Shown here: piece after piece, positions 2,731 through 64,000 of the stretch
Layout of the letters: every line of letters starts with the position of its first letter
Numbering within the stretch: position 1 is the first letter of the stretch
Source of the DNA: Thermoplasmata archaeon
GTDB taxonomy: Archaea > Thermoplasmatota > Thermoplasmata > GCA-020350865
Assembly (NCBI GenBank): GCA_020348445.1
Contig: CP070751.1
Location: 4,743,778 to 4,807,777, forward strand
Direction: 5' to 3'
DNA length: 64,000 nucleotides
The notes under the pieces: generated by a model
Databases searched by the model: none
Told to the model about the DNA's origin: nothing
The model's input: only the letters and a program-made list of their open reading frames with translations
Position numbers and translations under genes: made by a program

Positions 2731-2983
2731 AATTGTTGTTAATATAATTTATTAGAAGAGGATTTAGGCGGTAGATAAAAAGAATAGGGCAAGTGATATT
2801 CCATACATTATTTATAGAAGAGGTTTTGATGTTCCGTAACGATGATTAAATAGTACTATTTCCGAAGGGCGCGCCCGTTTAATAGTAAAAGCTGGGGATT
2901 ACATTTAAATTGGGCCAAAAAACATTGCTCGGAGCAAATGTTTATATATGGGATTAATTTAATATTGTTATGAGGTTGGATAA

Positions 2984-38757: not shown

Positions 38758-39507
38758 CTAATTGTCTTTTTTAGGGGTCAGTCTGTCCATTAGAGCAGTT
38801 ATGAACATCTCGGGCTCATCCACATCGAAAAGGATTTTCTTTGTTGTTTTTATCGGGGGAAATCCCAAAACAAAGGCCTTTTGAGGCCGTTTTAAGGTAA
38901 TGAGCACCCTGTATCCAAAATACCCGGATACAGCCCGATATCTTCGGGGTACCTTCAGATCTTTTGGTAAATCGGGAAGGCGGTCAGTGTCAGCTTTTAC
39001 AGATTCAATATTTTCTATGGGGATGAACAGCTCGATAAAGCTCACCCTGATTAATAGGGTTTTACCTAGTATTTCGTGGTCAGTTATATTTTTTGTAACT
39101 GTGAGCATGACCCCAAATGCCACCTCAGGAATAGAGAAATACAAAGGAATATCCAAGTAATCACTGATAACATATGATATGCCCATAAAAATCGAACCCG
39201 ATATTAGGACCGTGAGTACAAGATTGAGGTGCCCTCCTGCATGCTTGAACCGTAGCGGCTCCACACCCTGCAAATACAGAAGCACCTTGCGCTGTTTGCT
39301 ATGAGCCAGAAAGCCAAGATAACCAATTATCGCGACCGCAATTGAAATTGCGAGAATCGTATAACCCTTTCTCTCTGGTGGGAAATTAATAAGGAGCACT
39401 AAAACCTCCAGTATAAGGGTAATACCTAGTATGATTGTAAGGAGATTCCAGTTGAGGAGCCATTCGTGTTTTTTAAATGTATTTTTCCTTTTCACTGCAT
39501 ACACCAA
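38758..39507 (-). CDS. Membrane protein with four predicted TM helices and a soluble C-terminal domain, function unknown
   Basis: The hydrophobic segments are LLTIILGITLILEVLVLLI, ILAISIAVAIIGYLGFLA, LVLTVLISGSIFMGISYVI and EVAFGVMLTV. Confidence 0.45.
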   Translation of the reverse strand: MVYAVKRKNTFKKHEWLLNWNLLTIILGITLILEVLVLLINFPPERKGYTILAISIAVAIIGYLGFLAHSKQRKVLLYLQGVEPLRFKHAGGHLNLVLTVLISGSIFMGISYVISDYLDIPLYFSIPEVAFGVMLTVTKNITDHEILGKTLLIRVSFIELFIPIENIESVKADTDRLPDLPKDLKVPRRYRAVSGYFGYRVLITLKRPQKAFVLGFPPIKTTKKILFDVDEPEMFITALMDRLTPKKDN

Positions 39508-46265: not shown

Positions 46266-46784
46266 TTAAAGCATTCCTCCCTCTTTTAGTATCCTCTCCA
46301 ATTCCTCTGCAATGCCCTTATCAAGGATAATCTTGTGTTTTCCGATGTCAGATTCTGTAAATATTGTGGACTCTTTGCTTCCATGCTTGATCTTCTTTAC
46401 CTCGTCATGATAAATCTCAAAGTACTCCTTTGCACCGGCCTCCTTTGCATGATCAGCCTTGTCTGGCCAGTACTGTCCATCACTTAGGGAATATAACCGT
46501 TTCGCAACCTTGTCGTCTCCCCCTGGATAAGACTTGGGCTCCCTTATAAACACTGTCCTCAGATTGGTTATCCCAAAGCACCCAGGTCCATCCATGAATA
46601 TGACCTTCCACCCAGCCTTATGTCTCTTATAAATTCCTATACACATACCGTCTATTGATTTAGTCAGGCACTCACCATCGTGAAAAAGCATCTGACCTGA
46701 GGTGTCATATATCGTGCCTTTACCATCTATGTCTCCAAGTTTCATGTTGCTCACCCATATTTTACAATTGTTATCGTGAATCAT
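46266..46784 (-). CDS. Hypothetical soluble protein
   Basis: The 172-aa ORF has a coding-like composition and is tightly linked (3 nt) to the upstream membrane protein gene. I recognised no family. Confidence 0.4.
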   Translation of the reverse strand: MIHDNNCKIWVSNMKLGDIDGKGTIYDTSGQMLFHDGECLTKSIDGMCIGIYKRHKAGWKVIFMDGPGCFGITNLRTVFIREPKSYPGGDDKVAKRLYSLSDGQYWPDKADHAKEAGAKEYFEIYHDEVKKIKHGSKESTIFTESDIGKHKIILDKGIAEELERILKEGGML

Positions 46785-47409: not shown

Positions 47410-48831
47410 TCAATACCTGTACTCCTTGAGTGTATGCTGGAACCTGTGCTTTTCGGGGGGAATATCCATGGGATATTTTTCTGTAACACAACCGAGGCAA
47501 AGATCGTCTTTTGAAAATTGTAGTGCTTCAACCAATCCCTCAATGCTTATGTATCCCAAGGAATCTGCATTAAGAATCTCTCTTATTTCCTCCACAGTTC
47601 TATCATGGGCTATGAACTGGTCCCTTGTTGTCATGTCAATTCCCAAATAGCATGGCGATATCAGCGGGGGGGTGCCGATTCTGACATGCACCTCAGATGC
47701 CCCTGCCTCTCTTACCATATCCACGATTCGCTTCATGGTGGTACCCCTTACTATACTGTCATCCACTAGAACAACCCGTTTGTCCTCAACTTCACATTTA
47801 ATTGGATTTACCTTCTCCCTTACTGTAATCTCCCTTAATTTCTGGGAGGGCATGATAAAAGTTCTTGCTATGTATCGGTTCTTCATAAGGCCCTCAGCAA
47901 GAGGTATTCCAGATCCCAAAGAGAAGCCAAAAGCATGTGCTCTTCCCGAGTCAGGAACAGGTATTATAATATCTGCATGGGCAGGATGCTCCTTTGCCAG
48001 TCTCCAACCAACTCTCTTTCGAATCTCGTAAACACATCTTTCATCTATGATTGAGTCCCCCCTGGCAAAGTAAGTATATTCAAAGAAACAGTGGGCTCTG
48101 TGCTTTAGGTTAAACAGTTGATGTGATTTGTAATCTTTAGATGTTATTTCCACCACCTCTCCAGGAGCAACATCCCTTATCATCTTGGCACCTATTACAT
48201 CCAGAGCAACACTTTCTGAGGCAATGATATATCCATCTGCAAATTTACCCAAGCATAAAGGTTTTATTCCCAGGGGATCCCTAATTCCGAAAATCCTGTT
48301 GTTGAACATCATTGTGAAAGAGTAAGAGCCTTCGATCTCATTTAACGTCCTTTTTAATGCATTTATAAGGTCTCCTGAGGAGTTTAAGTGGTCAATTAAA
48401 AGATAACCAACAACCTCCTCCTCACAACCGAGTTCAAACTCGTGGCCCTTTCTCTTCAGTCGTTTTCGCAATTTCTCTGCATTGATAAGTATACCATTAT
48501 GGGCCAAGGCCACTTCACCGGCTTCTGTCTTTATGATTGTGGGTTGTGCGTTCTCAGGTTTGGATAATTTTATGGAGTAATAGGTATGACCTATTCCGTT
48601 CCTACCTTTCATGGATTTCAGTTTTTCATCATCAAAAATATTTGCTACCAAACCTATACCTTTGTGCGATTCGATCTTCTTGTTGAATACTGAGATACCT
48701 GCTGCTTCCTGACCGCGATGTTGAAGAGCACGAAGAGAGTAATAAATGTAGTTGGATGCTTTCGACTTCGAGGCGATGGCAACGACACCGCATCTCTCTT
48801 TAAACCTATGTTGTAGTTTTTGAATATTCAT
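47410..48831 (-). CDS. purF: Amidophosphoribosyltransferase
   Basis: It has a short propeptide followed by the Ntn nucleophile context ERCGVVAI. It has RGQEAAGI, the PRPP loop VLVDDSIVRGTT, and C-terminal Fe-S cysteines (PCYLGID, CLGCVT). Confidence 0.9.
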   Translation of the reverse strand: MNIQKLQHRFKERCGVVAIASKSKASNYIYYSLRALQHRGQEAAGISVFNKKIESHKGIGLVANIFDDEKLKSMKGRNGIGHTYYSIKLSKPENAQPTIIKTEAGEVALAHNGILINAEKLRKRLKRKGHEFELGCEEEVVGYLLIDHLNSSGDLINALKRTLNEIEGSYSFTMMFNNRIFGIRDPLGIKPLCLGKFADGYIIASESVALDVIGAKMIRDVAPGEVVEITSKDYKSHQLFNLKHRAHCFFEYTYFARGDSIIDERCVYEIRKRVGWRLAKEHPAHADIIIPVPDSGRAHAFGFSLGSGIPLAEGLMKNRYIARTFIMPSQKLREITVREKVNPIKCEVEDKRVVLVDDSIVRGTTMKRIVDMVREAGASEVHVRIGTPPLISPCYLGIDMTTRDQFIAHDRTVEEIREILNADSLGYISIEGLVEALQFSKDDLCLGCVTEKYPMDIPPEKHRFQHTLKEYRY

Positions 48832-48924: not shown

Positions 48925-50322
48925 CTATTTCCCGCACCAGCAATGAAGACATAGAGATTCTTTTGGAAGACCTATTGCTCTTATCATATCATCCAGGGTC
49001 TGGTATTTCAAAGAGGTGACACCAAGATCATCTTTTATCCATTCCACCATTTTTTGGAATTTTACAGAGTTTGAATCTATATATTCAGTGACGTCTTCTA
49101 TGTCATTTCCTTCTAATGCCCTGATGGCTCTTCTTGCTGCAAGTTCACTTATGGTTCTTGTGGATAGGATGTATCTACATGGAAACATAAGTGGGGGGCA
49201 TGCAACTCTTATATGGACCTCTTTTGCCTCATTGTCCCATAATTTCTGGACAGTGAAGTTCCGAAGTTGGGTTCCCCTGACTATGGAATCCTCGCATAGT
49301 ACCATCCGATTATCTTTAATAACCTCTTTTATTGGAATGAGTTTCATTGTTGCCACCATGTCTCTTATCTCCTGGGATGGCGGAGTGTAACTTCTACCGT
49401 ATCCTGAGGTATACTTAACCAGGGGCCTTCTAAACGGCACCTTCGCACCCATGGCATAACCGATTCCGTGGGCTGTTCCGGAGTCTGGGACACCAGAGGC
49501 AAAATCCAACTCTATATCATCATTTTTTGCTAGACACTTTCCTGTTCTTTCCCTGACACCCTCGACACTGATTCCCTCATAACTGGAGGCAGGATACCCT
49601 GTATAGATCCATAAAAATGCACAAATTTGAGTCGAGGATTCTGGCCCCTTCTTGTCACTAAGCCCTCCTTCTTTTAAAAGCACTATCTCACCAGGGCCTA
49701 GGTATTTCACTATGTTAAAGCCGAGATTAGGAAGGGAGCAGGTCTCTGAAACCACAACATGTTCATGGTCTTTCTTCCCTACAACAAGTGGTGTATGCCC
49801 GTGTCTGTCTCTTGCAGCATAGATCCCTTCTTCTGTGAGCAATAAAAGTGAAACAGAACCCTTGATTTTATCGAACATCTTTTCAATACCATCGATTATG
49901 TTTTCTCCACGGGTAATCAATTTACCGATAACCTCGGTTGTGTTGAGAGTTCCGTCATCCATTTCACTGAAAGAGAGACCTTCATTTTGCAATTGAAGGG
50001 CTAGTTCCTCGGCGTTTTCTATAAGACCCGCGGTGACGATGGCAAAATTTCCAAACGAGGAGGAGATTATTATAGGTTGGGAATCCATATCACTTATTAC
50101 ACCTATTCCGCTGTTTCCATTCATATCCTTGTAATCATCAAAGAATTTCGATTTGAATTGGGATTGTGTGATATCATGTATTTTTCTCTGTATCTTTTTG
50201 GTTTCTTTGTTATAGACAGCCAATCCACCACGCTGTGTACCCAGATGTGAATGGTAATCAACACCATAAAACAGGTTATTTGTACAATTGCCCATACCGA
50301 CAACGCCAAAAACTCCACTCAT
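48925..50322 (-). CDS. PurF-like paralogue (class II amidotransferase fold plus PRTase domain) lacking the N-terminal Cys nucleophile
   Basis: It is collinear with PurF (PRTase loop VLCEDSIVRGTQ; C-terminal CPPLMFPCRY and CLHCWCG). However, the N-terminus is MSGVFGVVG rather than (M)CG. The start lies 1 nt after the L37e stop. Confidence 0.7.
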   Translation of the reverse strand: MSGVFGVVGMGNCTNNLFYGVDYHSHLGTQRGGLAVYNKETKKIQRKIHDITQSQFKSKFFDDYKDMNGNSGIGVISDMDSQPIIISSSFGNFAIVTAGLIENAEELALQLQNEGLSFSEMDDGTLNTTEVIGKLITRGENIIDGIEKMFDKIKGSVSLLLLTEEGIYAARDRHGHTPLVVGKKDHEHVVVSETCSLPNLGFNIVKYLGPGEIVLLKEGGLSDKKGPESSTQICAFLWIYTGYPASSYEGISVEGVRERTGKCLAKNDDIELDFASGVPDSGTAHGIGYAMGAKVPFRRPLVKYTSGYGRSYTPPSQEIRDMVATMKLIPIKEVIKDNRMVLCEDSIVRGTQLRNFTVQKLWDNEAKEVHIRVACPPLMFPCRYILSTRTISELAARRAIRALEGNDIEDVTEYIDSNSVKFQKMVEWIKDDLGVTSLKYQTLDDMIRAIGLPKESLCLHCWCGK

Positions 50323-50802: not shown

Positions 50803-52146
50803 TTAGGAGCCTTCGGAAAGTCCCTTCAAATACTTGGGAAGGCCCGAAGATTCCCTTGGACCGACCAAGACCTCCCTTCCCGATTTCTCGTTCAGTTTCG
50901 CGCTCATCCTCGCCACCATACCTGGTATTATAATCTTGTTGTGTTTGATTTTGTCCTTTGCACCTGATTTTTCCAAGGCTTCTGCAACCATCTCAGGTGT
51001 AAGCTTTCCCGCTGCAAAAGCGGTCATCACTGATAACCCCTCTGTATCTATTACCTGAAGGTAGCTTGGTATCTTGCTGTTTTCAATGTCCCCTGCCACA
51101 GTAAAATAAGTCAGAGAAAAATTGGTTGTGAATAGCAAGGGCGAGTTTTCATCTGGGTTGTTTATCTCATAGAGTTCGGGTTTTACCTGAATCGGAATCT
51201 GTGGATCTGTGTAGATGTTCTGTCTTAAAGTGAACAAGGGAAACATCTTCCACTTGGAGATGTCATTGAGCATAAGAGCTGCAGAATATTTCATTGTGAA
51301 TACGGCAGCAGCAAGTGCCTCCTTTTCAGGATCCCCTTCAAGACTCAATATCACTGGATAACCCAATGGTCTGAAGTTCTTTTTTGCAGAAAGCCGCCTG
51401 ATGATGGTAAGAAGCCTCATGGTCTCGCCTAAAGATTTCTTTCCAAAATCCAGCATTATATCTTCCACACCGGCTTTCTTGATATTCTGTGTCAATTCAG
51501 CAAGCTCGTCAAGCCCTCCCTCCTCAAAAGCCACAATTGGACATTCGTACTTCTTTGCAAGCTCAGCCATTGCCTGCCAATTGTCCTTGGTTGCGGCATG
51601 AATCAAGGGCTTCCCACTAGAAGCTATTTTCAGGCCTTCTTCCATTACCTCTGGTTTATCGGAAATTAATATCAAAGGCAATGAAGTCTTTCCCGTAACT
51701 GTCTTTACAGTCTCAGTAAATTTAGCAGGATCTCCTGAAGAGGCCTTTATTGCCAGCATACCCATCTTCAATATCTGTCCAACTCTCTCGAATTCAACTT
51801 CTGAGGCTTCCTTTACCTTTGCCTCAAGTTCCTCTGGACTTGTTGTGTCCTCTACTATCAATGAATAAGCTGTTGGGTGATAGAAGGTCTTCTCGTGCCT
51901 GAAAAGTTCGGTCTCGTTTCCCATCTCTATTTTATTATCACCGGTTCCAACAGTAACAAGCCTGATTGGTGGTGCAGAAGATTCCTCAAGTTGGGTCTTT
52001 ACGTCATCAGAAACATCAGGACAGGCAGAAAGTTCGGCCTGTTTATTTGCCAGTTTCATGGCAAAGGCCAGGCATGTGGGCACACCGCACTTTCCACAGT
52101 TGGTCTTTGGTAGTAACTTGTATATCTCGATTGCCGTCATTCCCAT
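50803..52146 (-). CDS. acsC: Corrinoid iron-sulfur protein, large subunit (AcsC / gamma)
   Basis: The N-terminus is IEIYKLLPKTNCGKCGVPTCLAFAMKLA ([4Fe-4S] motif). ETELFRHEKTFYHPT and NFSLTYFTVAGDIE are collinear with bacterial AcsC as I recall it. Confidence 0.9.
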   Translation of the reverse strand: MGMTAIEIYKLLPKTNCGKCGVPTCLAFAMKLANKQAELSACPDVSDDVKTQLEESSAPPIRLVTVGTGDNKIEMGNETELFRHEKTFYHPTAYSLIVEDTTSPEELEAKVKEASEVEFERVGQILKMGMLAIKASSGDPAKFTETVKTVTGKTSLPLILISDKPEVMEEGLKIASSGKPLIHAATKDNWQAMAELAKKYECPIVAFEEGGLDELAELTQNIKKAGVEDIMLDFGKKSLGETMRLLTIIRRLSAKKNFRPLGYPVILSLEGDPEKEALAAAVFTMKYSAALMLNDISKWKMFPLFTLRQNIYTDPQIPIQVKPELYEINNPDENSPLLFTTNFSLTYFTVAGDIENSKIPSYLQVIDTEGLSVMTAFAAGKLTPEMVAEALEKSGAKDKIKHNKIIIPGMVARMSAKLNEKSGREVLVGPRESSGLPKYLKGLSEGS

Positions 52147-53132
52147 TATTCACCACCTCCAGAGGTTGCAAGTTCCTCAACTGCCTCTCTCACCATTTTA
52201 ACTGCAGAAGGATGCCTCATAATAAGCATGTCTGCCCCTGCTGTGATTGCAGATAGGCCTGTTGTTGCCTCCCAATAGGGACCTCTTATTTTTTCATCGC
52301 CGTAGGCCTCATTTGGTTGATGTGCTTCTCGAGCCTTCCAAGAAATAGAGGTATCGCATAAAATCGGCATCTGCAGCATCTGATCACCCATGAGTGCAGC
52401 TAGCCTTATTCTTTCGATAACAGAGTACGAGTACTCAAGGCCATAACCCAATCCTGCCTGCAACGGATCCATTACGATATTTTCTGGTTTGATACCAAAG
52501 TCAGTAAGCAGTATATTCAGCTGCTTTGCCAAGTTGATATCCAAATTGGAGAAGGCAACAATTGCATGATCATTTGCCATGGTGGCGACACTAATGGATT
52601 TGTACCTTTCCTCCTCTGCAAGTCCAAGAAGACATCTTTCACCCTTTGTTGCGTCTGAGACTACCTGCATGACCTTGGAATCCTTTTCATCATTACCACA
52701 GCCGTATATGAGCAATGGAACAGATACTGCAGAAAGAACCTCCTTTACTATCTCCACTGCCTGATCTGGACTCTTATCCTCCTCCTCGGGATTCGTGCCT
52801 TCCAGTTTCAGGCAGATAGCTTCAGCACCGTACTTTTCCACACATGTTTTTGCCCAGGAGGATGGTGACTCCAAAACATCGTTAAAAGGCTCCCTAGCCA
52901 AAGCCGGATAATCCTCCCGCACGACATCTAGGACCTCCATTGCAATAACTGTCTTTCTGGGCATATCACCCTCGAAATACAAAAAGGGCAGAGTGCTTAC
53001 ACCACCTAATGTAATACTACTTGACCTTGTGCCCCCCTCTTCTTGTGTTCCACCGAACTTAACTTCTCTAATCTTACCTGTCCACTTTTCCTTTGGTATC
53101 TGAACTGGCATATATCTCACCTCGTAACTCAT
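52146..53132 (-). CDS. acsD: Corrinoid iron-sulfur protein, small subunit (AcsD / delta)
   Basis: It has GGTRSSSITLGG, LDINLAKQLNILL and GLGYGLEYSYSVIERIRLAAL, all AcsD-like. It overlaps the acsC start by 1 nt. Confidence 0.9.
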   Translation of the reverse strand: MSYEVRYMPVQIPKEKWTGKIREVKFGGTQEEGGTRSSSITLGGVSTLPFLYFEGDMPRKTVIAMEVLDVVREDYPALAREPFNDVLESPSSWAKTCVEKYGAEAICLKLEGTNPEEEDKSPDQAVEIVKEVLSAVSVPLLIYGCGNDEKDSKVMQVVSDATKGERCLLGLAEEERYKSISVATMANDHAIVAFSNLDINLAKQLNILLTDFGIKPENIVMDPLQAGLGYGLEYSYSVIERIRLAALMGDQMLQMPILCDTSISWKAREAHQPNEAYGDEKIRGPYWEATTGLSAITAGADMLIMRHPSAVKMVREAVEELATSGGGE

Positions 53133-53153
53133 TTTTATTCATATATTCCACTA

Positions 53154-56100
53154 TCACATAAGTGGTGGCATATCCAATGCAGGATGACCCACCTTTTGAC
53201 AGAATGCAACTAGCTCCTCGGCAGTTTTTGCTACTTCCTCAGTTGCGATCTTGTCATAGAAATCAGGCGTCTCTAGCTCCTCGCATCTTTTTTCCATATG
53301 TTCCTTCATTGCTTCCTTGAGCTCCTTGGGCATCCACATGATTCTGTGAAAACCACCATTTGCACGGATGAATTTTTTGCTTAATAAGAATTTCCTGCCA
53401 ACTCCGATGAATCCCGGGGTCTGCAGGCCGCCACCAACTGATCCTGCCAATGTCGAGAACTTCATACCCAATGGTGTTTCTCCTGGGTGCTCACGGTTGA
53501 CAACAATCACACCCTGCAGATCAGGTGTTATACCCACTATGCACTCGAAACATCCGCAAGATGTCATGGGATTTTCCATTAGATCGTATTGATTAAATAT
53601 TTCCAGTTTACCGTGGCTGTATTCTTTTACTGCCTCGTTTACACCCACCCATTGACCCTTGTTCTCGTCTATGGTATCCTTCTTCTCAACAGGTTGATTG
53701 GGGCCTGTGGGTGAAAGTTGATTTGCAGCCTTTGCATCCATCCAGTTGATGGCACCGCATAATCCCAATCTCTCGGGGCTAATGATGCATACATGCTGCG
53801 GTGCAAAAGACTGACACAGCGTACAGGTATAGAATGTCTCAACTGCCTCGTCTGTCAATCCTGCCATCTTCTGGTCCCTTGCTTCATATGTTTCTAGAGC
53901 CTCGGGCAATCGCTTTTGAAGCTCCTCTTCATCTGTTACTATGGTCACCTGCACCCTGTTTAATATGGCACCGAACTCCTGGTGCATCCTTGTATAGAGT
54001 ATTGTTCCAAAATCCTTGAACTTGAGGCCGTTGGCAACACCATTTTTGCTCAATCGAATCCAGACCAGATTCCTTTGACCTGTATGCCAAGCACCTTCTG
54101 CGAAGTTGATGAATTGATGAATTCTTCGCTCCAGCACTGATTCAAAGTCCTCTATCATCTTCTTGCCATAAACCTCGACAAATATTCCAAGGACTGTCTT
54201 GCCCCCCTCTTCCATTTCGTCGACATCTTTGCCAATTAATGTGATCTTTCCGTCCTCCATTTCCTCTGCTGGTCGCATCTTGCAAAGCTCCATTGCCAGG
54301 GTCTTGGCTGCACCGCCTGCTTCCATATGTGTCTGGGGTCTTCTTACTGTCTCACCTTCGAAGGCAGGGCCGTATGCAACAGGTATATCGACTGTTCCCA
54401 TCTTGATGATCATGTCCCTAATCTCGATAGCAGTGGAGATCATCTGGGTATAGTCTTTTTGCATGACATACTTACCAGGAATCTCCTCAATATCCTGATC
54501 TGTTACTGTTGGTGAACCATTGAAAAGCACTGCAAATTCTGCTGCAGTTTTTATGTCGTCAATTGGGCCAAGCTGTAGAACCACGACCTTTGGTCTCTTT
54601 GATAGGTAATTGTAAATTCCCTCCCTGTCACCAGGCTTTACTCCACCAAATACCATTGCAGCTCTTATTGCAAAGGAAAGACCGTGTATGGCCTGTGTGA
54701 ACTCTCCCACACAAAACAGCATTCTGTCCAGACCCTTTTTCTCACCGATTTCGATTCCTACTTCTTTGATCTGTTGTATCGTGTCGAACGTGGGTATGAT
54801 CAGCATACCTTTGTTTTGTGCATCGCGGATGATCTTCTTCAGGGCATCAGGGTCCTTAGCTTTGCCCACAAGAACAATAGCACCTGGGATGGTGTCGTCA
54901 ACAAACGCTATTCCCAGTTCCCTTAGTATAACATCCGATACAAAACCTGAATATAAAGGATCCTCGCCATACGGATCTGGCTGACCTTTGATATATTTGA
55001 GAGCCTCGACGATTTCTGCTGAGACCATGGTTGCTTCGCCAGATTTAACTGCATTTTCGTAGGTGTATTCACCCTCTATTATCTTACGCCTGACATCACC
55101 AAGGATAATTGGAAGCTCTCCCAATGTCTTTACCTTGGCTCCAGTCCACGCTAGTATGCACGGCAGGAAATAACCTGTATCGGGATATTCGATCTCCTGC
55201 TCGCGGCCGTACTTTCTAATGGCTCTGTTGAGGAGGTAATCTGCATAGCCAGTTGCAATAATTGCACCATCAATGGCTTTTTTAAACAACTGCTCTTGTG
55301 ATATCTTTGGGCGCTCGTCCTGGGGAGTTGTTCCATCCCAGTAAATCCTTTCTGGATCATCACTTATACCCAGTTTCCAGCGCCTGTATTTAATAATGTT
55401 GTTTAACTTCCTTGCAGCCTCTTGAGGATCCTTTTCAAATACAAAGAATCCTCCATACACGTCCTTGGCTGTGACCTCTGCGATTTCAGTCACAATTGGG
55501 CTGCCTTTATGGAAGGCATAGACCCCAACATGCGTGGGCCACCCTGTTGCCACAAGCCAAGTTCCGATTGCAACAGCTTTCTCGCTCATCGCCTCTGGAG
55601 CAGAGCCCACCATTGGAAACTGGTGCATGTCAATTCCCATCTTATTGGAAAGCTCGGCCACCAGATTCTCGGCTCTGGAATTATCAACACAAGATCCCAT
55701 GTGAAGAACCAGAGGTAAGGGCCCACCCATTCCAGCCTTTTCCCCCGCTTCTGTTAGAAATCCCTTGAGTGAATCACCAGCATATTCATTTGTGGCCTCA
55801 GGTGTGAGATAACCGTGCTTTGCAAGGGCCTGGGCTGCACATCCTGTTGCCACAACAAGAACGTTATTCTTGGCAAGTTCCCTTGCTATTGTCAGATGGC
55901 CTTCATCATGTTGGGTTTTAACGTTATTACAACCTGCAATAAGGCATATTCCTGCTATTGTGCCATCATTTATTTTGTCCACAAGGTACTGTAGTGGATC
56001 TTCCGAATTGAAATTGCTAAGTATCTTCTTTATTGTCTCCAAGCTGAAACCAGCAGTGACCTTGTTCTTGAACTCGGGGATGAACACCTTGCTCGGATCC

Positions 56101-57290
56101 CTATTCTTGTATGCAGCTATTGCTACCTTTATGATCTCCTTGGCTGCCTCAGCGGCGCCCTTCTCAGTAAACTCTATATGTGTGTCAGTTGGAATCCTGG
56201 TAATGGGCATTGTTGAAATGAGCTTGGTATGAAAGCACTGTGACCAGTATCCTAGGGAGGGTGAGATACATTGGTAATCTACCACAATGGCATCAAGAAC
56301 ACCTGTTAGGATTGCCAGTTCCGAGCATGCGAAGTTCGTACAAATGGGAACTCCCCTTCTCATGAGGAGCTCATTTGCTGTGCAGCAGATACCAACGATG
56401 TTGATTCCCTTGGCTCCTGCAGCTTCAGCTTCCCCTTTTAATTCCTCGGCAGCGTCGCATACAACCTCAGAAAGAACTGGGTTGTGTCCATGAACACATA
56501 TGTTGATATGGTCCTCTTTTAGAGCACCGAGATTTGCTTCTGAAGAAACAATATCGGGGGTTCCAAATAGAATGTCGGCAAAGTCGGTTGAAATATTTTC
56601 ACCTGTAACATCACCCATTGCGCATTTTATTCCACCAAATATGAGGGGTACAGGATCGGCATCGCAGCCCTGATGCGATCTGTGCATAAGCTCTGCAATT
56701 CCCCTGTCAATGTTAGTGCACATAACATCATGGGAATCCACAAGATTTAATCTCTTCTCAGGAAGCATTGTCTTAAGCCAAGTTGCGGGTTGATCGTCTT
56801 GTCTTGCAAAATCTTCAAGTGCTTTTTCTGCAAGTTCCTTTGCTAGGGTCATGTTGTCCTTGCCTGCAATATCTATTCCCACCTTCTCGGCCACTCGTTT
56901 GAGTTTCTCTTCGTCCTTTATTGAATAGGCAGGAGCCTTTCCCTCGGCGAGTGCATGAAGTGTATGGGCAAGATGCCTCCCATGATCAGAGTGGGCCGCG
57001 GCACCCCCGCCTATCATCCTCAGGACCTTTCTTGCCACAATGGTGTAATCCTTTGCTCCGCATATCCCCTCTTTGGGTCCCCTTCCATGGGGATCGATCC
57101 TACAGGGTCCTTGAAGACACAGCCTGCAACACAGACCAGATTCTCCAAATCCGCACTGAGGTGACATTGCATCCATTCTATCCCAGTAGGTTTCCATATT
57201 TGCTTCTGCAGCTTTGTCCAGCATCACCCAGGCTGCAGGGTCAACTGTTTTATCTTTATGGTTTTCTTTCTGTTCTGAATCTTCGCTCAT
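53154..57290 (-). CDS. acsA-acsB: Fused Ni-CODH (AcsA-like, N-terminal ~650 aa) and acetyl-CoA synthase (AcsB-like, C-terminal ~700 aa) in one polypeptide
   Basis: The CODH part has QCGFGESGLCCRLCLQGPCRI, VHGHNP, GICCT, AGCNN and HMGSCVDNSR. The linker ISDDPERIYWDGTTPQDERPKISQEQ lies at ~55300-55375. The ACS part has YPDTGYFLP, GPAFEGE, the A-cluster motifs CQSFAPQHVCIISPERLGLCG (~53740-53830) and SCGCFE (53533-53570), and the end GHPALDMPPLM. Confidence 0.9.
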   Translation of the reverse strand: MSEDSEQKENHKDKTVDPAAWVMLDKAAEANMETYWDRMDAMSPQCGFGESGLCCRLCLQGPCRIDPHGRGPKEGICGAKDYTIVARKVLRMIGGGAAAHSDHGRHLAHTLHALAEGKAPAYSIKDEEKLKRVAEKVGIDIAGKDNMTLAKELAEKALEDFARQDDQPATWLKTMLPEKRLNLVDSHDVMCTNIDRGIAELMHRSHQGCDADPVPLIFGGIKCAMGDVTGENISTDFADILFGTPDIVSSEANLGALKEDHINICVHGHNPVLSEVVCDAAEELKGEAEAAGAKGINIVGICCTANELLMRRGVPICTNFACSELAILTGVLDAIVVDYQCISPSLGYWSQCFHTKLISTMPITRIPTDTHIEFTEKGAAEAAKEIIKVAIAAYKNRDPSKVFIPEFKNKVTAGFSLETIKKILSNFNSEDPLQYLVDKINDGTIAGICLIAGCNNVKTQHDEGHLTIARELAKNNVLVVATGCAAQALAKHGYLTPEATNEYAGDSLKGFLTEAGEKAGMGGPLPLVLHMGSCVDNSRAENLVAELSNKMGIDMHQFPMVGSAPEAMSEKAVAIGTWLVATGWPTHVGVYAFHKGSPIVTEIAEVTAKDVYGGFFVFEKDPQEAARKLNNIIKYRRWKLGISDDPERIYWDGTTPQDERPKISQEQLFKKAIDGAIIATGYADYLLNRAIRKYGREQEIEYPDTGYFLPCILAWTGAKVKTLGELPIILGDVRRKIIEGEYTYENAVKSGEATMVSAEIVEALKYIKGQPDPYGEDPLYSGFVSDVILRELGIAFVDDTIPGAIVLVGKAKDPDALKKIIRDAQNKGMLIIPTFDTIQQIKEVGIEIGEKKGLDRMLFCVGEFTQAIHGLSFAIRAAMVFGGVKPGDREGIYNYLSKRPKVVVLQLGPIDDIKTAAEFAVLFNGSPTVTDQDIEEIPGKYVMQKDYTQMISTAIEIRDMIIKMGTVDIPVAYGPAFEGETVRRPQTHMEAGGAAKTLAMELCKMRPAEEMEDGKITLIGKDVDEMEEGGKTVLGIFVEVYGKKMIEDFESVLERRIHQFINFAEGAWHTGQRNLVWIRLSKNGVANGLKFKDFGTILYTRMHQEFGAILNRVQVTIVTDEEELQKRLPEALETYEARDQKMAGLTDEAVETFYTCTLCQSFAPQHVCIISPERLGLCGAINWMDAKAANQLSPTGPNQPVEKKDTIDENKGQWVGVNEAVKEYSHGKLEIFNQYDLMENPMTSCGCFECIVGITPDLQGVIVVNREHPGETPLGMKFSTLAGSVGGGLQTPGFIGVGRKFLLSKKFIRANGGFHRIMWMPKELKEAMKEHMEKRCEELETPDFYDKIATEEVAKTAEELVAFCQKVGHPALDMPPLM

Positions 57291-57336: not shown

Positions 57337-57765
57337 TCATTCCTTTATGTAAAGCGCCTCTGTGGGACAAGACGCAACACATGCCTGGTACTCCCCGCCT
57401 CCACATAAATCACATATGATTGAGATATTCTTCTCCTCCAGCTTAGCAACGGCATCAAAAGGACAGGCCTCTATGCACTCCCAGCAACCAGTGCATTTCT
57501 CCTCATCCAAAACCACTGTTCCGTCTTCTAATTTTGTAATGGCATCGTACTCGCAAGCATCAACACATTTTGGTTTTTTACAGTTGACGCAGACCTGTAC
57601 ATGAGGTTTGTCTTTCTTGATCACAACCATTATCCTTTGATGCATTTTAGGGTCGATTTCCATAACTTCGTCGATATCCTTTGCATCAGAGTGATTTTGT
57701 ATACATGCAAGTTCGCATGTGTGGCATGTCTCACATCTTTCTGGGTATAATTTTACAATTTTCAA
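57337..57765 (-). CDS. CooF/HycB-like polyferredoxin (four [4Fe-4S] motifs)
   Basis: The motifs are CETCHTCELAC, CVNCKKPKCVDAC, CTGCWECIEACP and CDLCGGGEYQACVASCP. It is the first gene of the CODH/ACS cluster. Confidence 0.8.
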   Translation of the reverse strand: MKIVKLYPERCETCHTCELACIQNHSDAKDIDEVMEIDPKMHQRIMVVIKKDKPHVQVCVNCKKPKCVDACEYDAITKLEDGTVVLDEEKCTGCWECIEACPFDAVAKLEEKNISIICDLCGGGEYQACVASCPTEALYIKE

Positions 57766-58449: not shown

Positions 58450-58956
58450 ATGGGTGAGGAGACAAGATTCTACAATTTCAGCAAGACGATAAATGAACAG
58501 TTGATACTGGATATAATCGAGGATCATGGAGATTACGTGCTCCATGCCACTGAGTCCGTCTTGGCAAGGCGTTTTTTAGACTGGGAAGGGATTTGTTATC
58601 TAGCTGATATTTTAACGGTGTTTAGGAAGAACCACAGGGATTATCTGATCGGAATCGAAATAAAGGACTGGAAACACACAGTCCATCCAAAACTCTGCTG
58701 GGAATACCTAAAAACATACAGAAAGAGCTGTGAATACTTTTACCTGGCAGCTAGAAAATTCTCTGGCACGGCATCAATTATCAAGGAGATCGGATTAATC
58801 AACCTCAGCACCATGAAGGTGGTAAAAAGGGCCGAGTATCTTTTCCCTCAAAAGGAGTTTCGGGCCGGTGTAGTAAGGGGTCTGAAAAAGTTCACTTCTC
58901 CTGTCAGGGATATTATAGAAGATCCGTACCAAATGAGTTTGGATATGTATTTGTAG
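58450..58956 (+). CDS. Hypothetical protein with a possible PD-(D/E)xK nuclease-like core
   Basis: The order ADILTVF ... LIGIEIKDWKH resembles a D...(D/E)xK motif on consecutive beta strands. This call is weak. Confidence 0.35.
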   Translation: MGEETRFYNFSKTINEQLILDIIEDHGDYVLHATESVLARRFLDWEGICYLADILTVFRKNHRDYLIGIEIKDWKHTVHPKLCWEYLKTYRKSCEYFYLAARKFSGTASIIKEIGLINLSTMKVVKRAEYLFPQKEFRAGVVRGLKKFTSPVRDIIEDPYQMSLDMYL

Positions 58957-59059: not shown

Positions 59060-62000
59060 CTATATGTCCTTTCCCCCAAAATTAGGTAAAACTTCCTCAA
59101 TCTTAAAAGCATTTTCAGATTCCAGGTATGCCAGAATAAACTCCTCAAAGGGAATACCAGTTCTTATTGACAAAAGGACGATATCTTGGATCCTTGTGAC
59201 GTCCATTGGATGAATTTTAGGATTCGATGTTTTAAAGTCGTTTATTACAGATATTATACAATCGGTATCCTTTTTCAATCGATTTTTAAATCCATATCTT
59301 CTCACAAGTAAAATTGTAAACAAAATCAGCAAAAGCGGCCAGAATATAATTAGGAGAAAGATATTTGGTACTCTAGATGGTTCCCCAGGATCCTCTTCAG
59401 GCTCTATCGAAAATGTTTCAGGTCCTGAGCTGTTCCAGTTACCACTTGTGTCCACAGCCCAGATAGTATATGTGTAATCTCCAAGGAAGTCCGAATCGAT
59501 ATTATAGTACCACTGATTATGGCTTCCTTTCTCCATGGTGACATTCGTCCATGTTCCATCAGCAAGTGTTAGATTTATCCAAACTCCGCCGATTCCCACA
59601 TCATCGAACACACCGACAGTTATGTTTATCATGTCGTCTATGTTAAAACGATTCGGTTTTTCTTTCGGTATTTTAATATCTGGGCCGTCGGTATCCTGTA
59701 TTATAAATGATCCTGAACTTGTATTGTTCCAATTACCACTGGTGTCACAGGCAAAGATTGCATAGATGTATAATCCTAAATCAGTGTACGGTTCCCTAAG
59801 ATACCATCCATCACCTCTGAAGTGACTCAGGCTTTTATTTACCCATGTGCCATTGGGATATCGAAGGTTTATCCAAACTGAATCCACAGCCACATCATCC
59901 AATACATCCACAGATATGTTGACATATCCTTCGTTCTCCTGTGGATCAGGTGTATCAACTAAATCATTAAACCATGGAGAAATGATATCTATTATCGTGA
60001 ACATACCAAGATCAGTAGCATTCCATTGTCCACTTTTGTCCTTTGCCCAAATCCTATATGAGGAAACTCCAGGAATAAAATACGAATTTTCGTAGTACCA
60101 ATTGTAACCAGAACCTGGTACCGTACTTGTATTCACCCAGATATTATTAGGATATACGAGGTTAAGCCATACCTCATCCACACCATCGTAATCCTTCACA
60201 TTGAGGGTTATGTTCACAAAACCGCCAACCACCTGTGGATCAGGATAATCTGTGAGATTCCACAATATGGGAGGAATATCAAGCTTGGTAATTTCAAAAG
60301 TCCCGGGGACTGTCGAGTTCCAGTTGGAACTTGTATCCTTTGCCAAAATTGAGAAAAAATAAATACCTTCGTCTGGGTAAGAGATGTTATAGAACCATTC
60401 ATCCCCTGCTCCCTTATTCATGCTGGTATTTAGCAAACCGCCATCTGGATATGGAATTACAACAAAGACCTCATCCACTGCAATATCATCAATGACCTTC
60501 ACAGATATATTAACAAAACCGCCTATTTCTTGAGGATTTGGATCACTTTTTTCATCCCAAATTAAAGGACCATCAGTGTCTCGGATTACGAAGCTATAAG
60601 AGCCTGTTGTGTTCCAGTTGTAGCTTGTGTCATACGCCCATATCTGATAGGAATAAATCCCTAGATCTATGTATGAGGTGTCGTGATACCAACCAAATCC
60701 TGTTCCTTTAGCCATGCTGATGTTAATCCAAGAACTGTCTGGATAAGTTATATTTATCAAAACCTCGGAAATAGCCACATCATCAATTACATCCACTGTG
60801 ATATTTACAAAACCATCGTTCTCCTGGGGATCAGGGAAGTCGAGAATATTGTTAAATTCAGGTCTTATCATATCTATTATCGTGAAAGTTTCCGGCCCGA
60901 AGACCATTTTATTGTCACTTGTATCGTTCACCCATATTGTGTAGGAATACACCCCCACTACAAAATAGGCTGTATTATAATGCCACTCATTTCCAGTTCC
61001 TTGGGCCATTGTGGCATTATACTGCATACCAATAGGATTTGTGAAATTGATCCAAACTGAATCCACACCCATGTTATCTGTGGCATTTACAGTGATGTTC
61101 ACAAAACCTCCAAATACTTGTGGATCTGGAAAATCGCTTCCATTCCATACAATAGGAGGTACTATGTCGATCTTTATATCAAAAGCACCAGGGCCGCTTG
61201 TATTCCAATTCCCACTTGTATCACTGGCCCAGATCCTATAGACATATGCACCCAAATCTGTATAGGAGGAGTTGTAGTACCATCCACTTCCTGATCCTGG
61301 CTCCATGCTCACATTAATCCATGTGCCGTTCGGGTATGTGAGATTAATTAGAACCTCATCAATTGCAACATCGTCTATTATTTCCACCGTTATGTTTACA
61401 GAACCATTTATTTCTTGAGGATCTGGAGTATCATCAAGATTATTAAATTCTGGGCCATCCGTATCTTCCACAAGGAAGCTCTCAGGACTTGTGCTGTTTA
61501 GGTTATTGCTTGTATCATTTGCATAAATCGTATAAAGATAGGTGCCTAAGTCAGAATATATCGTGGTATAAAACCATCCATCCCCCAATCCCTTATCCAT
61601 TGAAACATTGAACCATGAGCCATTTGGATATGTGATGTTCACCCATACTTCATCTACTCCCACATCATCTGTCACATCCACTGTGATATTGACAACACCA
61701 TTATTCTCCTGTGGATCTGGAAAATCGAGAATGTTATTGAATATTGGGCCATCAGTATCCTGGATTGTGAAGGTACCTGGGCCAGTTTTATTCCAGTTGG
61801 AACTTGTGTCCTTTGCCCACACTGTATAGGAATGAATCCCCAAATCCAATAAAGAGTTATTATAAAACCACTCATCCCCTATTCCCTTTTCCATGCTCAC
61901 GTTAATCCAAGAGCTGTCAGGATATGTTATGTTAACCCACACACCGTCAACACCAACATCATCAATTACATCCACAGTGATATTTACAAAGCCTCCGTTC

Positions 62001-64000
62001 TCCTGCGGATCTGGTGTATCAATAAGGTTAGTTAAGATTGGCCCATCCGTGTCCTGGATTGTAAAAATCCTAGGTCCTGTTGAATTCCAATTGGAGCTTG
62101 TGTCATTTGCCCATACAGTATAAGAATAATCACCCAAATCGGGATAGGTTGAGTTATAAAACCATTCATTTCCCGCGCCCTGTGTCATGGTGACGTTAAT
62201 CCAAGAGCTATCTGGGTAGGTTATATTTACCCATACCTCGTCAACTCCAACATCATCTGTAATATCAACTGTTATATTGACGTAACCATCATTTTCTTGG
62301 GGATTGGGAGTGGCATCAAGATTGCTTAGCTCGGGATCAATTGAATCGAAAATCCCGAATGCCCCTGGACCAGCACTGTTCCAATTGTTGCTTGTGTCAT
62401 TTGCCCAAACTATATATGAATATATACCAGAGTCCATATATGAAGTATCGTGGAACCATTCGTTTCCTGAGCCTTTTGTCATACTGACGTTGACTGTACT
62501 TCCATCAGGATATGTTATATTCACCCAAACCTCGTCTACGGCAATATCATCAGTTACATCAACTGTGATGTTTACAAGGCCCCCTGGAACTTGGGGATCT
62601 GGAAAATCATTTAGGTTCGAAAGAACAGGAGGGCTGGTATCTCCTTTGATCTCGAATCCGCCAGGATTTGAATTATTCCAGTTGGAGCTTGTGTCATTGG
62701 CCCAGACAGTGTATGAATAAGTTCCTTGGTCAATGAATGTGGAATTGTAATACCATCCATCCCCACTGCCAGGTAACATACTGATATTGAGCCAACTTCC
62801 ATTTGGATAGGTAATGTTTATCCAGACTCCCCCCACACCAACGGGATCAGTGACGTTCACACTTATGTTGACAAAACCACCGATTTCCTGAGGATCAGGA
62901 GCATCTACAAGTCCTTCAAATAAAGGTCCCTTTGTATCCTGGATTGTAAAGGTCCCAGGACCTGAGCTGTTCCAATTTGAGCTTGTGTCTTTGGCCCAAA
63001 CTGAGTATGAGTGAATACCCAAGTCAGTATAGGTCGTGTTGTAGAACCATTCATCTCCTACTCCTGGTATCATACTGATATTAATCCAAGTAGCGTCAGG
63101 ATAGGTAATATTAATCCAAACCTCGTCCACTCCAACATCATCTGTCACATCCACGTTTATATTAACAAAACCATTATATTCTTGAGGATCGGGAATATCA
63201 TTAAGATTAGCGAGGAAAGGACCGTCAGTATCCTGAATTATGAAAGTACCTGGACCTGAGAAGTTCCAATTGGAGCTTGTATCGTTAGCCCACACGGTGT
63301 AGGAATAACTCCCAAGGTCAGCGTAGGTGGTGTTGTAGAACCACTCATCTCCAGCACCTGGTGCCATACTCACGTTCAACCAAGTGGCATCTGGGTAAGT
63401 TATGTTGATCCATACTCCATCCACTCCCACATCATCTGTGACATCCACTGTAATATTGACATAACCATCATTTTCCTGGGGATCTGGAGCATCATCAAGA
63501 TTGGAGAATACAGGGCCATCAGTATCCTGAATAGTGAACGTACCGGGACCCGTGGTAGCCCGATTATCACTAGTATCGTTGGCCCATACTGTATAAAAAT
63601 ATACACCCAAATCTGAATAGGATGCTTCATAGAACCATTCATTCCCACTGCCTTTGTTCATTGAGACATTGGTCAAGGTGCCGTTTGGATAGGAGATGTT
63701 CACCCAAACACTGTCGACTCCTACATCATCTATTACATCCACCGTTATGTTGACATTTCCTCCATTTTCTTGGGGATCGGGAACATCACCTAGGTTATTG
63801 AGTAATGGGCCATCAGTGTCTTGGATAGTAAAAGTCCCAGGTCCGGCTGTATTCCAATTGTCATTTGTATCGTTGGCAAATATCGTATAAGTATAAGCCC
63901 CCAAATCAGCATAGGATGTATTGTAGAACCACTCATCCCCTGTTCCTTGGATCATCGATACATTGGTCCAAGTCGCATCAGGATACGTGACATTGATCCA
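59060..64000 (-). CDS. Giant surface repeat protein, N-terminus outside the window: at least 16 copies of a ~97-aa beta-sandwich-like repeat, a TM helix, and a ~95-aa cytoplasmic domain
   Basis: The reading frame stays open to base 64000 (WINVTYPDATWTNVSM precedes the track's first Met). The repeat consensus is GPGTFTIQDTDGPxxxNLxDxPDPQENxGxVNITVDVxDDVGVDxVWVNITYPDxSWxNVSMxxGxGxEWFYNxxYxDLGxYSYTVWAxDTSxNWN. The TM helix is IFLLIIFWPLLLILFTILLV. Confidence 0.75.
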   Translation of the reverse strand, partial: WINVTYPDATWTNVSMIQGTGDEWFYNTSYADLGAYTYTIFANDTNDNWNTAGPGTFTIQDTDGPLLNNLGDVPDPQENGGNVNITVDVIDDVGVDSVWVNISYPNGTLTNVSMNKGSGNEWFYEASYSDLGVYFYTVWANDTSDNRATTGPGTFTIQDTDGPVFSNLDDAPDPQENDGYVNITVDVTDDVGVDGVWINITYPDATWLNVSMAPGAGDEWFYNTTYADLGSYSYTVWANDTSSNWNFSGPGTFIIQDTDGPFLANLNDIPDPQEYNGFVNINVDVTDDVGVDEVWINITYPDATWINISMIPGVGDEWFYNTTYTDLGIHSYSVWAKDTSSNWNSSGPGTFTIQDTKGPLFEGLVDAPDPQEIGGFVNISVNVTDPVGVGGVWINITYPNGSWLNISMLPGSGDGWYYNSTFIDQGTYSYTVWANDTSSNWNNSNPGGFEIKGDTSPPVLSNLNDFPDPQVPGGLVNITVDVTDDIAVDEVWVNITYPDGSTVNVSMTKGSGNEWFHDTSYMDSGIYSYIVWANDTSNNWNSAGPGAFGIFDSIDPELSNLDATPNPQENDGYVNITVDITDDVGVDEVWVNITYPDSSWINVTMTQGAGNEWFYNSTYPDLGDYSYTVWANDTSSNWNSTGPRIFTIQDTDGPILTNLIDTPDPQENGGFVNITVDVIDDVGVDGVWVNITYPDSSWINVSMEKGIGDEWFYNNSLLDLGIHSYTVWAKDTSSNWNKTGPGTFTIQDTDGPIFNNILDFPDPQENNGVVNITVDVTDDVGVDEVWVNITYPNGSWFNVSMDKGLGDGWFYTTIYSDLGTYLYTIYANDTSNNLNSTSPESFLVEDTDGPEFNNLDDTPDPQEINGSVNITVEIIDDVAIDEVLINLTYPNGTWINVSMEPGSGSGWYYNSSYTDLGAYVYRIWASDTSGNWNTSGPGAFDIKIDIVPPIVWNGSDFPDPQVFGGFVNITVNATDNMGVDSVWINFTNPIGMQYNATMAQGTGNEWHYNTAYFVVGVYSYTIWVNDTSDNKMVFGPETFTIIDMIRPEFNNILDFPDPQENDGFVNITVDVIDDVAISEVLINITYPDSSWINISMAKGTGFGWYHDTSYIDLGIYSYQIWAYDTSYNWNTTGSYSFVIRDTDGPLIWDEKSDPNPQEIGGFVNISVKVIDDIAVDEVFVVIPYPDGGLLNTSMNKGAGDEWFYNISYPDEGIYFFSILAKDTSSNWNSTVPGTFEITKLDIPPILWNLTDYPDPQVVGGFVNITLNVKDYDGVDEVWLNLVYPNNIWVNTSTVPGSGYNWYYENSYFIPGVSSYRIWAKDKSGQWNATDLGMFTIIDIISPWFNDLVDTPDPQENEGYVNISVDVLDDVAVDSVWINLRYPNGTWVNKSLSHFRGDGWYLREPYTDLGLYIYAIFACDTSGNWNNTSSGSFIIQDTDGPDIKIPKEKPNRFNIDDMINITVGVFDDVGIGGVWINLTLADGTWTNVTMEKGSHNQWYYNIDSDFLGDYTYTIWAVDTSGNWNSSGPETFSIEPEEDPGEPSRVPNIFLLIIFWPLLLILFTILLVRRYGFKNRLKKDTDCIISVINDFKTSNPKIHPMDVTRIQDIVLLSIRTGIPFEEFILAYLESENAFKIEEVLPNFGGKDI

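Follow-up and report, generated by a model that had tools for sequence, protein, structure and literature searches.

A bacterial-type CODH/ACS encoded as a single AcsA-AcsB chain in a Thermoplasmatota archaeon

[quoted passage not shown] A gene within a 64,000-nt stretch of the Thermoplasmata archaeon assembly GCA_020348445.1 (contig CP070751.1, positions 4,743,778 to 4,807,777; hereafter the window) raises the question of whether these two subunits can be one and the same polypeptide. A preliminary description of this gene, located at 53154..57290 on the minus strand, had read it as a head-to-tail fusion of a complete bacterial-type Ni-CODH with a complete AcsB, and this reading is backed by domain models, metal ligands, predicted fold and more than 100 homologues. 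The fusion is real, i.e., the gene encodes one chain of 1378 amino acids (aa). With a probability of roughly 0.8, we regard the product as a genuine and functional single-chain bacterial-type CODH/ACS of about 150 kDa from a Thermoplasmatota (Methanomassiliicoccales-related) archaeon, operating by the mechanism outlined below.

The preliminary description named no strand. On the minus strand, the translation of 53154-57290 begins with ATG and continues, free of interruptions as originally claimed, through 1378 aa to a stop codon; a plus-strand reading of the same interval contained stops throughout and was dropped. Searches with Pfam returned four domains, Prismane (residues 53-623, 526.8 bits), CODH_A_N (686-767), CdhC (969-1123) and ACS_CODH_B_C (1135-1378). 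The Prismane and ACS_CODH_B_C models thus match within a single chain, and the same was found for at least 120 single-chain clusters. Two NCBIfam models cover the protein nearly end to end: TIGR01702 (CooS, anaerobic CODH catalytic subunit) matched residues 16-642 with 714.7 bits (cut-off 478) over profile positions 2-621 of 621, and NF040764 (AcsB) matched residues 673-1378 with 939.1 bits (cut-off 800) over profile positions 1-705 of 705, including the A1 domain. A sequence search of the PDB aligned residues 10-645 with positions 23-661 of the 674-residue AcsA of Moorella thermoacetica and residues 652-1378 with positions 9-729 of its 729-residue AcsB. The CODH module aligned with positions 7-634 of Carboxydothermus hydrogenoformans CODH-II as well, and no solved chain in this search spanned both halves. 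The cluster-binding motifs quoted in the preliminary description were all found: CGFGESGLCCRLCLQGPCRI (46-65), HMGSCVDNSR (530-539), CQSFAPQHVC...CG (1159-1179) and SCGCFE (1244-1249).

The CODH module occupies 55371..57290 (minus strand; residues 1-640, with a domain extent of about 10-640). We mapped its metal ligands via the AcsA (674 aa) of Neomoorella stamsii, which together with the AcsB of the same locus (729 aa; L015) served as a proxy for M. thermoacetica numbering. Accordingly, C46 and C54 are the ligands of the D-cluster, C55, C58, C63 and C77 those of the B-cluster, and H269, C303, C341, C454, C484 and C534 those of the C-cluster. When 84 fused homologues were aligned, each of these ligands was either invariant or at least 90% conserved. 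Foldseek superimposed the CODH part of the predicted structure on C. hydrogenoformans CODH-II with a TM score of 0.98 (normalised to target length) and a root-mean-square deviation of 1.2 Å over 634 columns, a single-chain comparison that confirms folds and is silent on the interface between the modules. The archaeal cdhA model TIGR00314 scored 60.8 bits, far below its cut-off of 781.3. Judged by these sequence features, the CODH half is a Ni,Fe-CODH of the CooS/AcsA type, assigned to clade F of Inoue et al., and it is predicted to interconvert CO and CO2.

The ACS half, again on sequence grounds, is a bacterial-type AcsB with three domains including A1. Domain A1 (54411..55298, minus strand; residues ~665-960) contains the CODH_A_N match and is matched in the PDB by the A1-only constructs 9fu4_B and 6yua_A; its counterpart at the N-terminus of the bacterial ACS is the part that docks on CODH and through which the CO tunnel runs. 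A2 (53910..54410, minus strand; residues ~961-1127) contains the CdhC match, and its boundary was deduced from the domain limits of the M. thermoacetica enzyme and the residue offset of 650 obtained by the mapping. A3 (53154..53909, minus strand; residues ~1128-1378) contains the ACS_CODH_B_C match and the A-cluster, with C1156, C1159, C1168 and C1178 as ligands of the [4Fe-4S] cubane, C1159, C1245, G1246 and C1247 as ligands of Ni, and F1162 as gate residue. These residues map to positions 506, 509, 518, 528 and 595-597 of the M. thermoacetica enzyme, and F1162 maps to 512. The N. stamsii proxy has Cys or His at each of the M. thermoacetica metal-ligand positions. Three tunnel alanines are also kept, as A758, A874 and A917 (A110, A222 and A265 in M. 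thermoacetica), and F1162 corresponds to F512; tunnel mutants of the Lindahl group reportedly identify these four as CO-tunnel and gate positions. Both the A-cluster ligands and the ACS tunnel residues were invariant or at least 90% conserved among the 84 fused homologues.

Some relatives carry additional elements in this part of the protein. Two fused proteins, P0108 and P0119 (1894 and 1896 aa), and one unfused AcsB, P0147 (1276 aa), contain a ~540-aa intein (Pfam PF14528 and PF14890). In all three, the insertion site corresponds to residue C1159 of the window protein (nt ~53814-53816; Cys509 in M. thermoacetica), through which the cubane and the proximal Ni of the A-cluster are bridged, so that binding of the A-cluster is impossible before splicing. 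Furthermore, the representatives search returned several non-standard CODH/ACS architectures (P0137, P0138, P0148 and P0127-P0129), with N-terminal extensions of the CODH of roughly 215-270 aa or ~470 aa and a C-terminal extension of AcsB of ~480 aa.

Between the two modules lies a linker, ISDDPERIYWDGTTPQDERPKISQ, at 55299..55370 (minus strand; residues ~641-664). The preliminary description had put its length at ~25 aa, which proved accurate: in the AlphaFold model the last CODH helix comprises residues 622-639 and the first ACS helix residues 665-694, with coil in between. The linker is weakly conserved; the identity of homologues to the query is 0.25 over residues 641-660 compared with 0.4-0.9 in most of the protein, and only the N-terminus is conserved less. 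Its length has a spread of about 11 residues, the region equivalent to 625-680 measuring 47-58 residues across homologues, and the frame is always kept. We checked the junction in related genomes and found neither a stop nor a frameshift there in any locus that reaches it: it is in frame in L001, L002, L006, L007, L009 and L011-L014, and also in L008 and L010, which contain frameshifts or Ns within the ACS half (near residues 1141 and 1184-1227), whereas L017 stops at the contig edge. The fused reading frame is therefore not the product of a missed stop or frameshift. The GC content across the junction is even (0.45-0.47 over 53000-56999). In the two-gene loci of N. stamsii and Desulfovirgula, the free C-terminal tail of AcsA, the intergenic spacer and the N-terminal tail of AcsB add up to a greater length than that of the fused linker.

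How widespread is this architecture? A search of 5.8 billion protein clusters, formed at 90% identity, identified at least 120 homologous clusters with 55-95% identity to the query, mostly 1340-1440 aa long and each containing all four Pfam domains. The summed member counts of the listed clusters amount to about 1,060 sequences, and the clusters originate from JGI, ENA, NCBI and Logan assemblies. Among the GTDB loci retrieved, the gene is an intact single open reading frame (ORF) in nine species representatives (L001, L002, L006, L007, L009 and L011-L014), and the fused loci include chromosome-scale contigs of 3.2 Mb (L006), 2.7 Mb (L009) and 2.1 Mb (L014). In the GTDB loci checked, the fusion is restricted to archaeal metagenome-assembled genomes (MAGs) of the Thermoplasmatota/Methanomassiliicoccales type. 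The named sources are Thermoplasmata, Thermoplasmatota, Methanomassiliicoccales and unclassified MAGs labelled Methanobacteriota/Euryarchaeota. Single records labelled Bathyarchaeia and Halobacteriota share one subgroup of 67% identity; these may be bins with a loose classification. The closest genome is "Methanomassiliicoccales archaeon bin396" (CP070739.1; L006), in which the two halves are 87% and 89% identical to those of the window protein and synteny extends through the downstream purF-like gene. When 1.84 billion representatives from clustering at 50% identity were scanned exhaustively with HMMER, a single full-length representative spanned the junction (P0038), along with two shorter variants, and the next matches were unfused proteins, an AcsB (P0124, 48%) and a CODH (P0125, 48%).

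In two relatives from the fused family, both from NCBI, the CODH half has decayed, and an intact AcsB half with 56% and 46% identity to the query is retained. P0121 (1141 aa, on a 228-kb contig) is devoid of the B/D-cluster cysteines and of the segment matching query residues 325-413, and P0123 (991 aa) has just the last ~100 CODH residues, preceded by an unrelated N-terminus of ~200 aa. From their sequences, both look like intermediates toward loss of the CODH. A different rearrangement is seen in L008 (Halobacteriota MAG MFD04544), where a second ferredoxin copy and a CODH-like fragment (5001-5435 and 2820-3224) are located upstream of the fusion. The fragment is 50% identical to CODH residues 42-189. 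Part of the locus may thus have been duplicated, or there may be a second paralogue of the CODH.

The preliminary description had also asked how the CODH dimer and the tunnel interface could be arranged in such a chain. We modelled residues 1-1130 (CODH, linker, A1 and A2) as a monomer with AlphaFold2, using an alignment of 84 sequences. The mean predicted local distance difference test (pLDDT) value was 88.1 and the predicted template modelling (pTM) score 0.89. Residues 640-664 were modelled as coil with a pLDDT of about 92, i.e., as an ordered linker. Low confidence was confined to the first eight residues and to residues 41-80, the loops bearing the B- and D-cluster cysteines, which require metal clusters and the dimer partner. 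With the CODH contributing just 57% of the modelled length, so high a pTM implies a confident placement of A1 and A2 relative to it. The ordered linker and the high pTM fit docking of the ACS domain on the CODH module of the same chain. According to both the mapping and the 84 homologues, the dimer-bridging cysteines of the D-cluster are conserved. The most likely assembly would be a homodimer, (AcsA-AcsB)2, as the counterpart of the bacterial alpha2beta2 enzyme.

The fusion is part of an operon. Upstream, separated by 46 nt, a gene with a TTG start at 57337..57765 (minus strand) encodes a CooF-like ferredoxin of 142 aa. Its 16 cysteines would suffice for four [4Fe-4S] clusters, CxxCxxCxxxC motifs are present, and it matched Fer4_11, Fer4_7 and related Pfam families as well as HydN/DmsB/DsrO-type ferredoxins in NCBIfam. 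The ferredoxin occupies the same position in seven related loci (L001, L002, L006, L007, L009, L010 and L014) and probably exchanges electrons with the CODH module. Downstream by 21 nt follows an AcsD/CdhD-like small subunit of the corrinoid iron-sulfur protein (52146..53132, minus strand; 328 aa; Pfam CdhD; NF003376 with 399 bits vs a threshold of 280), the end of which overlaps by 1 nt with the gene for the AcsC/CdhE-like large subunit (50803..52146, minus strand; 447 aa; Pfam FeS and CdhD; NF003195 with 595 bits vs 306). Both genes are syntenic in related loci, and the order ferredoxin, fusion, AcsD, AcsC recurs in relatives that are 67-74% identical.

To trace the origin of the fusion, we computed one distance (neighbour-joining) tree for each half, as the preliminary description had proposed, and rooted both at the midpoint. 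The fused proteins formed a single clade in either tree, and the only seemingly unfused members within it were intein-containing, truncated or frameshifted copies of the fusion. The CODH half was sister to ACS-linked AcsA of Bacillota, Synergistota and Moorella. For the ACS half, the sister was a small group comprising, among others, the stand-alone AcsB from a Methanomassiliicoccaceae MAG, with bacterial AcsB coming next. In all bacterial loci examined (L003, L015-L016 and L018-L084), acsA and acsB are two ORFs; loci that had appeared as bacterial fusions, as they matched residues 1-1130 in the GTDB scan, all turned out to be two genes upon ORF inspection. In several of them acsB directly follows acsA, and in N. 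stamsii (L015, stop at 6954-6956) and Desulfovirgula (L018, stop at 6939-6941) the gap consists of one in-frame stop and a few further codons. The fusion could thus plausibly have originated when one stop codon was lost. These data suggest that the fusion likely arose once and that a bacterial acsA-acsB pair was its likely source, in which case the two adjacent genes of an operon of bacterial origin would have been joined in a one-time event through loss of the stop codon and a short spacer. Most of the bacterial pairs returned share one reading frame. We considered programmed readthrough in these pairs and rejected it: their frequency is probably a selection bias, since the locus finder retains the 80 best-scoring loci and tblastn alignments that run through an in-frame stop obtain higher scores. 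The CODH closest to the query among the unfused representatives, P0125, is part of a classical cooC-acsA-acsB-acsC-RACo-cooC cluster, 16 nt upstream of acsB.

A stand-alone AcsB related to the ACS half was seen in the Methanomassiliicoccaceae MAG JGI 3300010162 (L004 and L005, 6001-8193). Downstream of this bacterial-type protein of 730 aa (46% identity), AcsD and AcsC follow one another as they do in the window, an adjoining CODH gene is absent, and the upstream gene encodes a 302-aa protein with no similarity to CODH.

Taken together, we propose that two chains would dimerise via their CODH modules, sharing the bridging D-cluster, and that each A1 would dock in cis, on the CODH module of its own chain. 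The C-cluster would reduce CO2 to CO with electrons from the ferredoxin, and CO would move through the conserved hydrophobic tunnel of A1 to the A-cluster, where it would be joined with a methyl group delivered by AcsCD and with CoA to give acetyl-CoA. The reverse reaction, acetyl-CoA cleavage, would be equally possible. By the fusion, the 1:1 stoichiometry would be fixed and assembly of the tunnel interface would become intramolecular. Several points weigh against this proposal. Cis docking, dimer and tunnel geometry rest on pTM and pLDDT values and on homology, and the model is a monomer that ends at residue 1130. Two CODH-side tunnel positions differ from Moorella (A219 is S205 and A578 is G562), although a third, L215, is kept as L201. 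Pfam and NCBIfam scans detected none of the maturation and methyltransferase genes cooC, acsE and acsF in the 64-kb window, which means that maturation and the methyl branch are encoded elsewhere. The intact chain, its activity and its metal content are predictions from the gene, and the trees are distance-based and midpoint-rooted, without bootstraps.

The two tunnel substitutions would also suit a chain that remains intact and is domain-swapped, with A1 docking in trans on the CODH of the partner, or one whose interface is rerouted as in Clostridium autoethanogenum, so that the tunnel path would be unlike that of Moorella. A monomer prediction does not separate cis from trans. The CODH/ACS of C. 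autoethanogenum (PDB 6YTT, a sequence match here) reportedly shows that both the gas channel and the CODH-ACS interface are open to rearrangement. We nevertheless consider such an arrangement unlikely: the pTM of 0.89 and the ordered linker fit a self-consistent cis arrangement, the ACS tunnel residues A758, A874, A917 and F1162 are of the Moorella type, and the window protein scores higher against the Moorella and C. hydrogenoformans enzymes than against that of C. autoethanogenum (760-772 vs 646 bits for ACS and 723 vs 521 bits for CODH).

The low conservation of the linker, lower still only at the N-terminus, could alternatively be taken to mean that the fusion is a precursor, cleaved at the linker to yield an ordinary two-subunit alpha2beta2 enzyme. 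There is, however, no recognisable protease site or self-cleaving element, Pfam finding the four enzyme domains and nothing else, and the linker is modelled as ordered rather than as a floppy, exposed loop. Moreover, the lineage has shortened it below the free tails of the unfused enzymes, which is unexpected for a segment that is simply removed, and we judge cleavage to be distinctly improbable. Finally, a single base error could in principle mimic a fusion, since acsA and acsB are adjacent in the closest bacterial operons and sometimes one in-frame stop apart, yet an assembly or sequencing artefact (a lost stop, a frameshift or a chimeric join of genes that are really separate) is practically negligible in view of the at least 120 independent fused clusters from four sources down to 55% identity, the several fused loci on chromosome-scale contigs, a linker that varies in sequence and length between lineages and always stays in frame, its being shorter than the two free tails and the spacer in Neomoorella, and the uniform GC content. 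The single-chain enzyme with cis docking hence remains our preferred interpretation.

Compared with known enzymes, both modules align end to end with the alpha2beta2 AcsA/AcsB of M. thermoacetica (PDB 1MJG and 1OAO) and with the C. hydrogenoformans CODH/ACS (7ZKJ). Identity to the Moorella-group proteins is about 47-51%, with identical metal ligands and ACS tunnel residues. The window protein shares with the bacterial enzyme the three-domain ACS including A1 and the linkage to both corrinoid iron-sulfur protein genes. It differs in that the bacterial subunits are separate, non-covalently assembled polypeptides, whereas here there is one ORF, in which a linker of ~24 residues (some 11 fewer in the lineages with the most compact form) joins the two modules and the AcsA C-terminal and AcsB N-terminal tails are both shortened. 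Further differences are the archaeal host, the gene order ferredoxin, AcsAB, AcsD, AcsC and the lack of a nearby cooC or acsE. The archaeal acetyl-CoA decarbonylase/synthase (ACDS; CdhABCDE) has the overall chemistry, the cluster types and homologous CdhD/CdhE corrinoid subunits in common with the window system; however, its CODH is of the CdhA type, bearing the additional clusters E and F as well as an epsilon subunit, and its CdhC is without A1. The low cdhA score reported above and the match to the full AcsB model including A1 set the window protein apart from ACDS and identify it as a bacterial type in an archaeal host. Other fusions of CODH/ACS components show that parts of the complex do fuse, but none joins both catalytic subunits; the CODH of Desulfomonile tiedjei (WP_014808137.1), which bears an N-terminal ACDS delta subunit, involves other partners and another domain order.

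The preliminary description had left open whether such fusions were already catalogued. They are, though barely. Supplementary Table 1 of Inoue et al. 2019 lists two CODH-ACS fusions (clade F, "others"), OGS41472.1 and OGS44063.1, from Euryarchaeota archaeon RBG_16_62_10 and RBG_13_57_23. As in the window protein, a clade-F CooS precedes ACS, the D-cluster is of type II, the C-cluster signature is complete and the host is archaeal; unlike the window protein, these entries have an extra N-terminal Cys3 motif, and their lengths are 1275 aa and, for a partial sequence, 989 aa vs 1378 aa. Judged from the tabulated features, without a sequence alignment, they probably belong to the same family. The main text of Inoue et al. 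2019 does not discuss the fusions, which appear in the table only. According to a preprint of 2026 (PMC13370988), AcsB occurs in archaea that include Thermoplasmatota and Methanomassiliicoccales, the text being silent on a fusion with CODH; the Yaplasmales paper names CooS, CooF and AcsB among the Wood-Ljungdahl genes and leaves a fusion unmentioned; and the words "fused" and "fusion" are absent from a 2026 genomic-context study of CODHs in eLife. The fusion did not occur by name in any of the 20 top-ranked matches from about 8.3 million papers and preprints, a collection that does not cover Adam et al. 2018 (PNAS). Matches in papers on D. autotrophicum and syntrophic acetate oxidisers were irrelevant to the fusion, and "acsAB" in a paper on Atribacterota denotes concatenated alignments instead of a gene fusion. 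Automatic product names at JGI combine both functions. The presence in databases and in one table lowers the novelty of the fusion without removing it: it is a real variant, tabulated once and abundant in metagenomic databases, for which the literature searched contained neither a discussion nor a biochemical or structural characterisation.

Neighbouring genes whose products are obligate partners commonly fuse in evolution, and the present case, evolutionarily easy and mechanistically conservative, overturns no mechanism; for specialists it is useful and mildly surprising rather than startling. It indicates that the C-terminus of CODH and the N-terminus of ACS can be joined by a linker ~11 residues shorter than ~24, with all catalytic residues kept. 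The fusion also marks a discrete lineage of bacterial-type CODH/ACS in Archaea, useful for tracing horizontal transfer of the pathway. Heterologous expression of CODH/ACS is notoriously hard, and a one-gene catalytic core with fixed 1:1 stoichiometry could simplify it. A bolder scenario, to which we give slightly less than even odds, is that of an obligate single-gene CODH/ACS with one origin that spread in Thermoplasmatota after a single transfer of a bacterial acsA-acsB operon. In this scenario, the tether would have replaced the non-covalent assembly of the tunnel, and the lineage would later have given rise to the forms with a decayed CODH half (P0121 and P0123) and perhaps also to the stand-alone AcsB that gut Methanomassiliicoccaceae possess. 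If true, it would provide a minimal one-gene core for heterologous CO2-to-acetyl-CoA chemistry and a natural experiment on tethering vs CO channelling and leakage.

The remainder of the window encodes archaeal housekeeping proteins, such as a family B polymerase, phosphoglycerate kinase and CTP synthase, and large surface proteins. Two tandem amidophosphoribosyltransferase-like genes, at 48925-50322 and 47410-48831 (both minus strand), lie immediately downstream of the acs operon. With 483 bits (cut-off 350), the second qualifies as a bona fide purF, and the first, a divergent paralogue, scored 205 bits, below the cut-off, had no Pfam match for a phosphoribosyltransferase and is kept beside the operon in L006. 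Five ORFs are very large: 16008-24170 (minus; 2720 aa), 9646-15885 (minus; 2079 aa), 59060-63955 (minus; 1631 aa), 40878-44930 (minus; 1350 aa) and 31007-33907 (plus; 966 aa). The two shortest of them were scanned and contained NosD/beta-helix repeats and, together with a transglutaminase core, Big_7/Big_13 Ig-like repeats; presumably, the large ORFs encode surface or S-layer-associated proteins. In addition, four ORFs of 168-330 aa had no Pfam match, 58450-58956 (plus), 46266-46784 (minus), 36765-37757 (plus) and 38758-39507 (minus), and the first two of these had no match in NCBIfam either.

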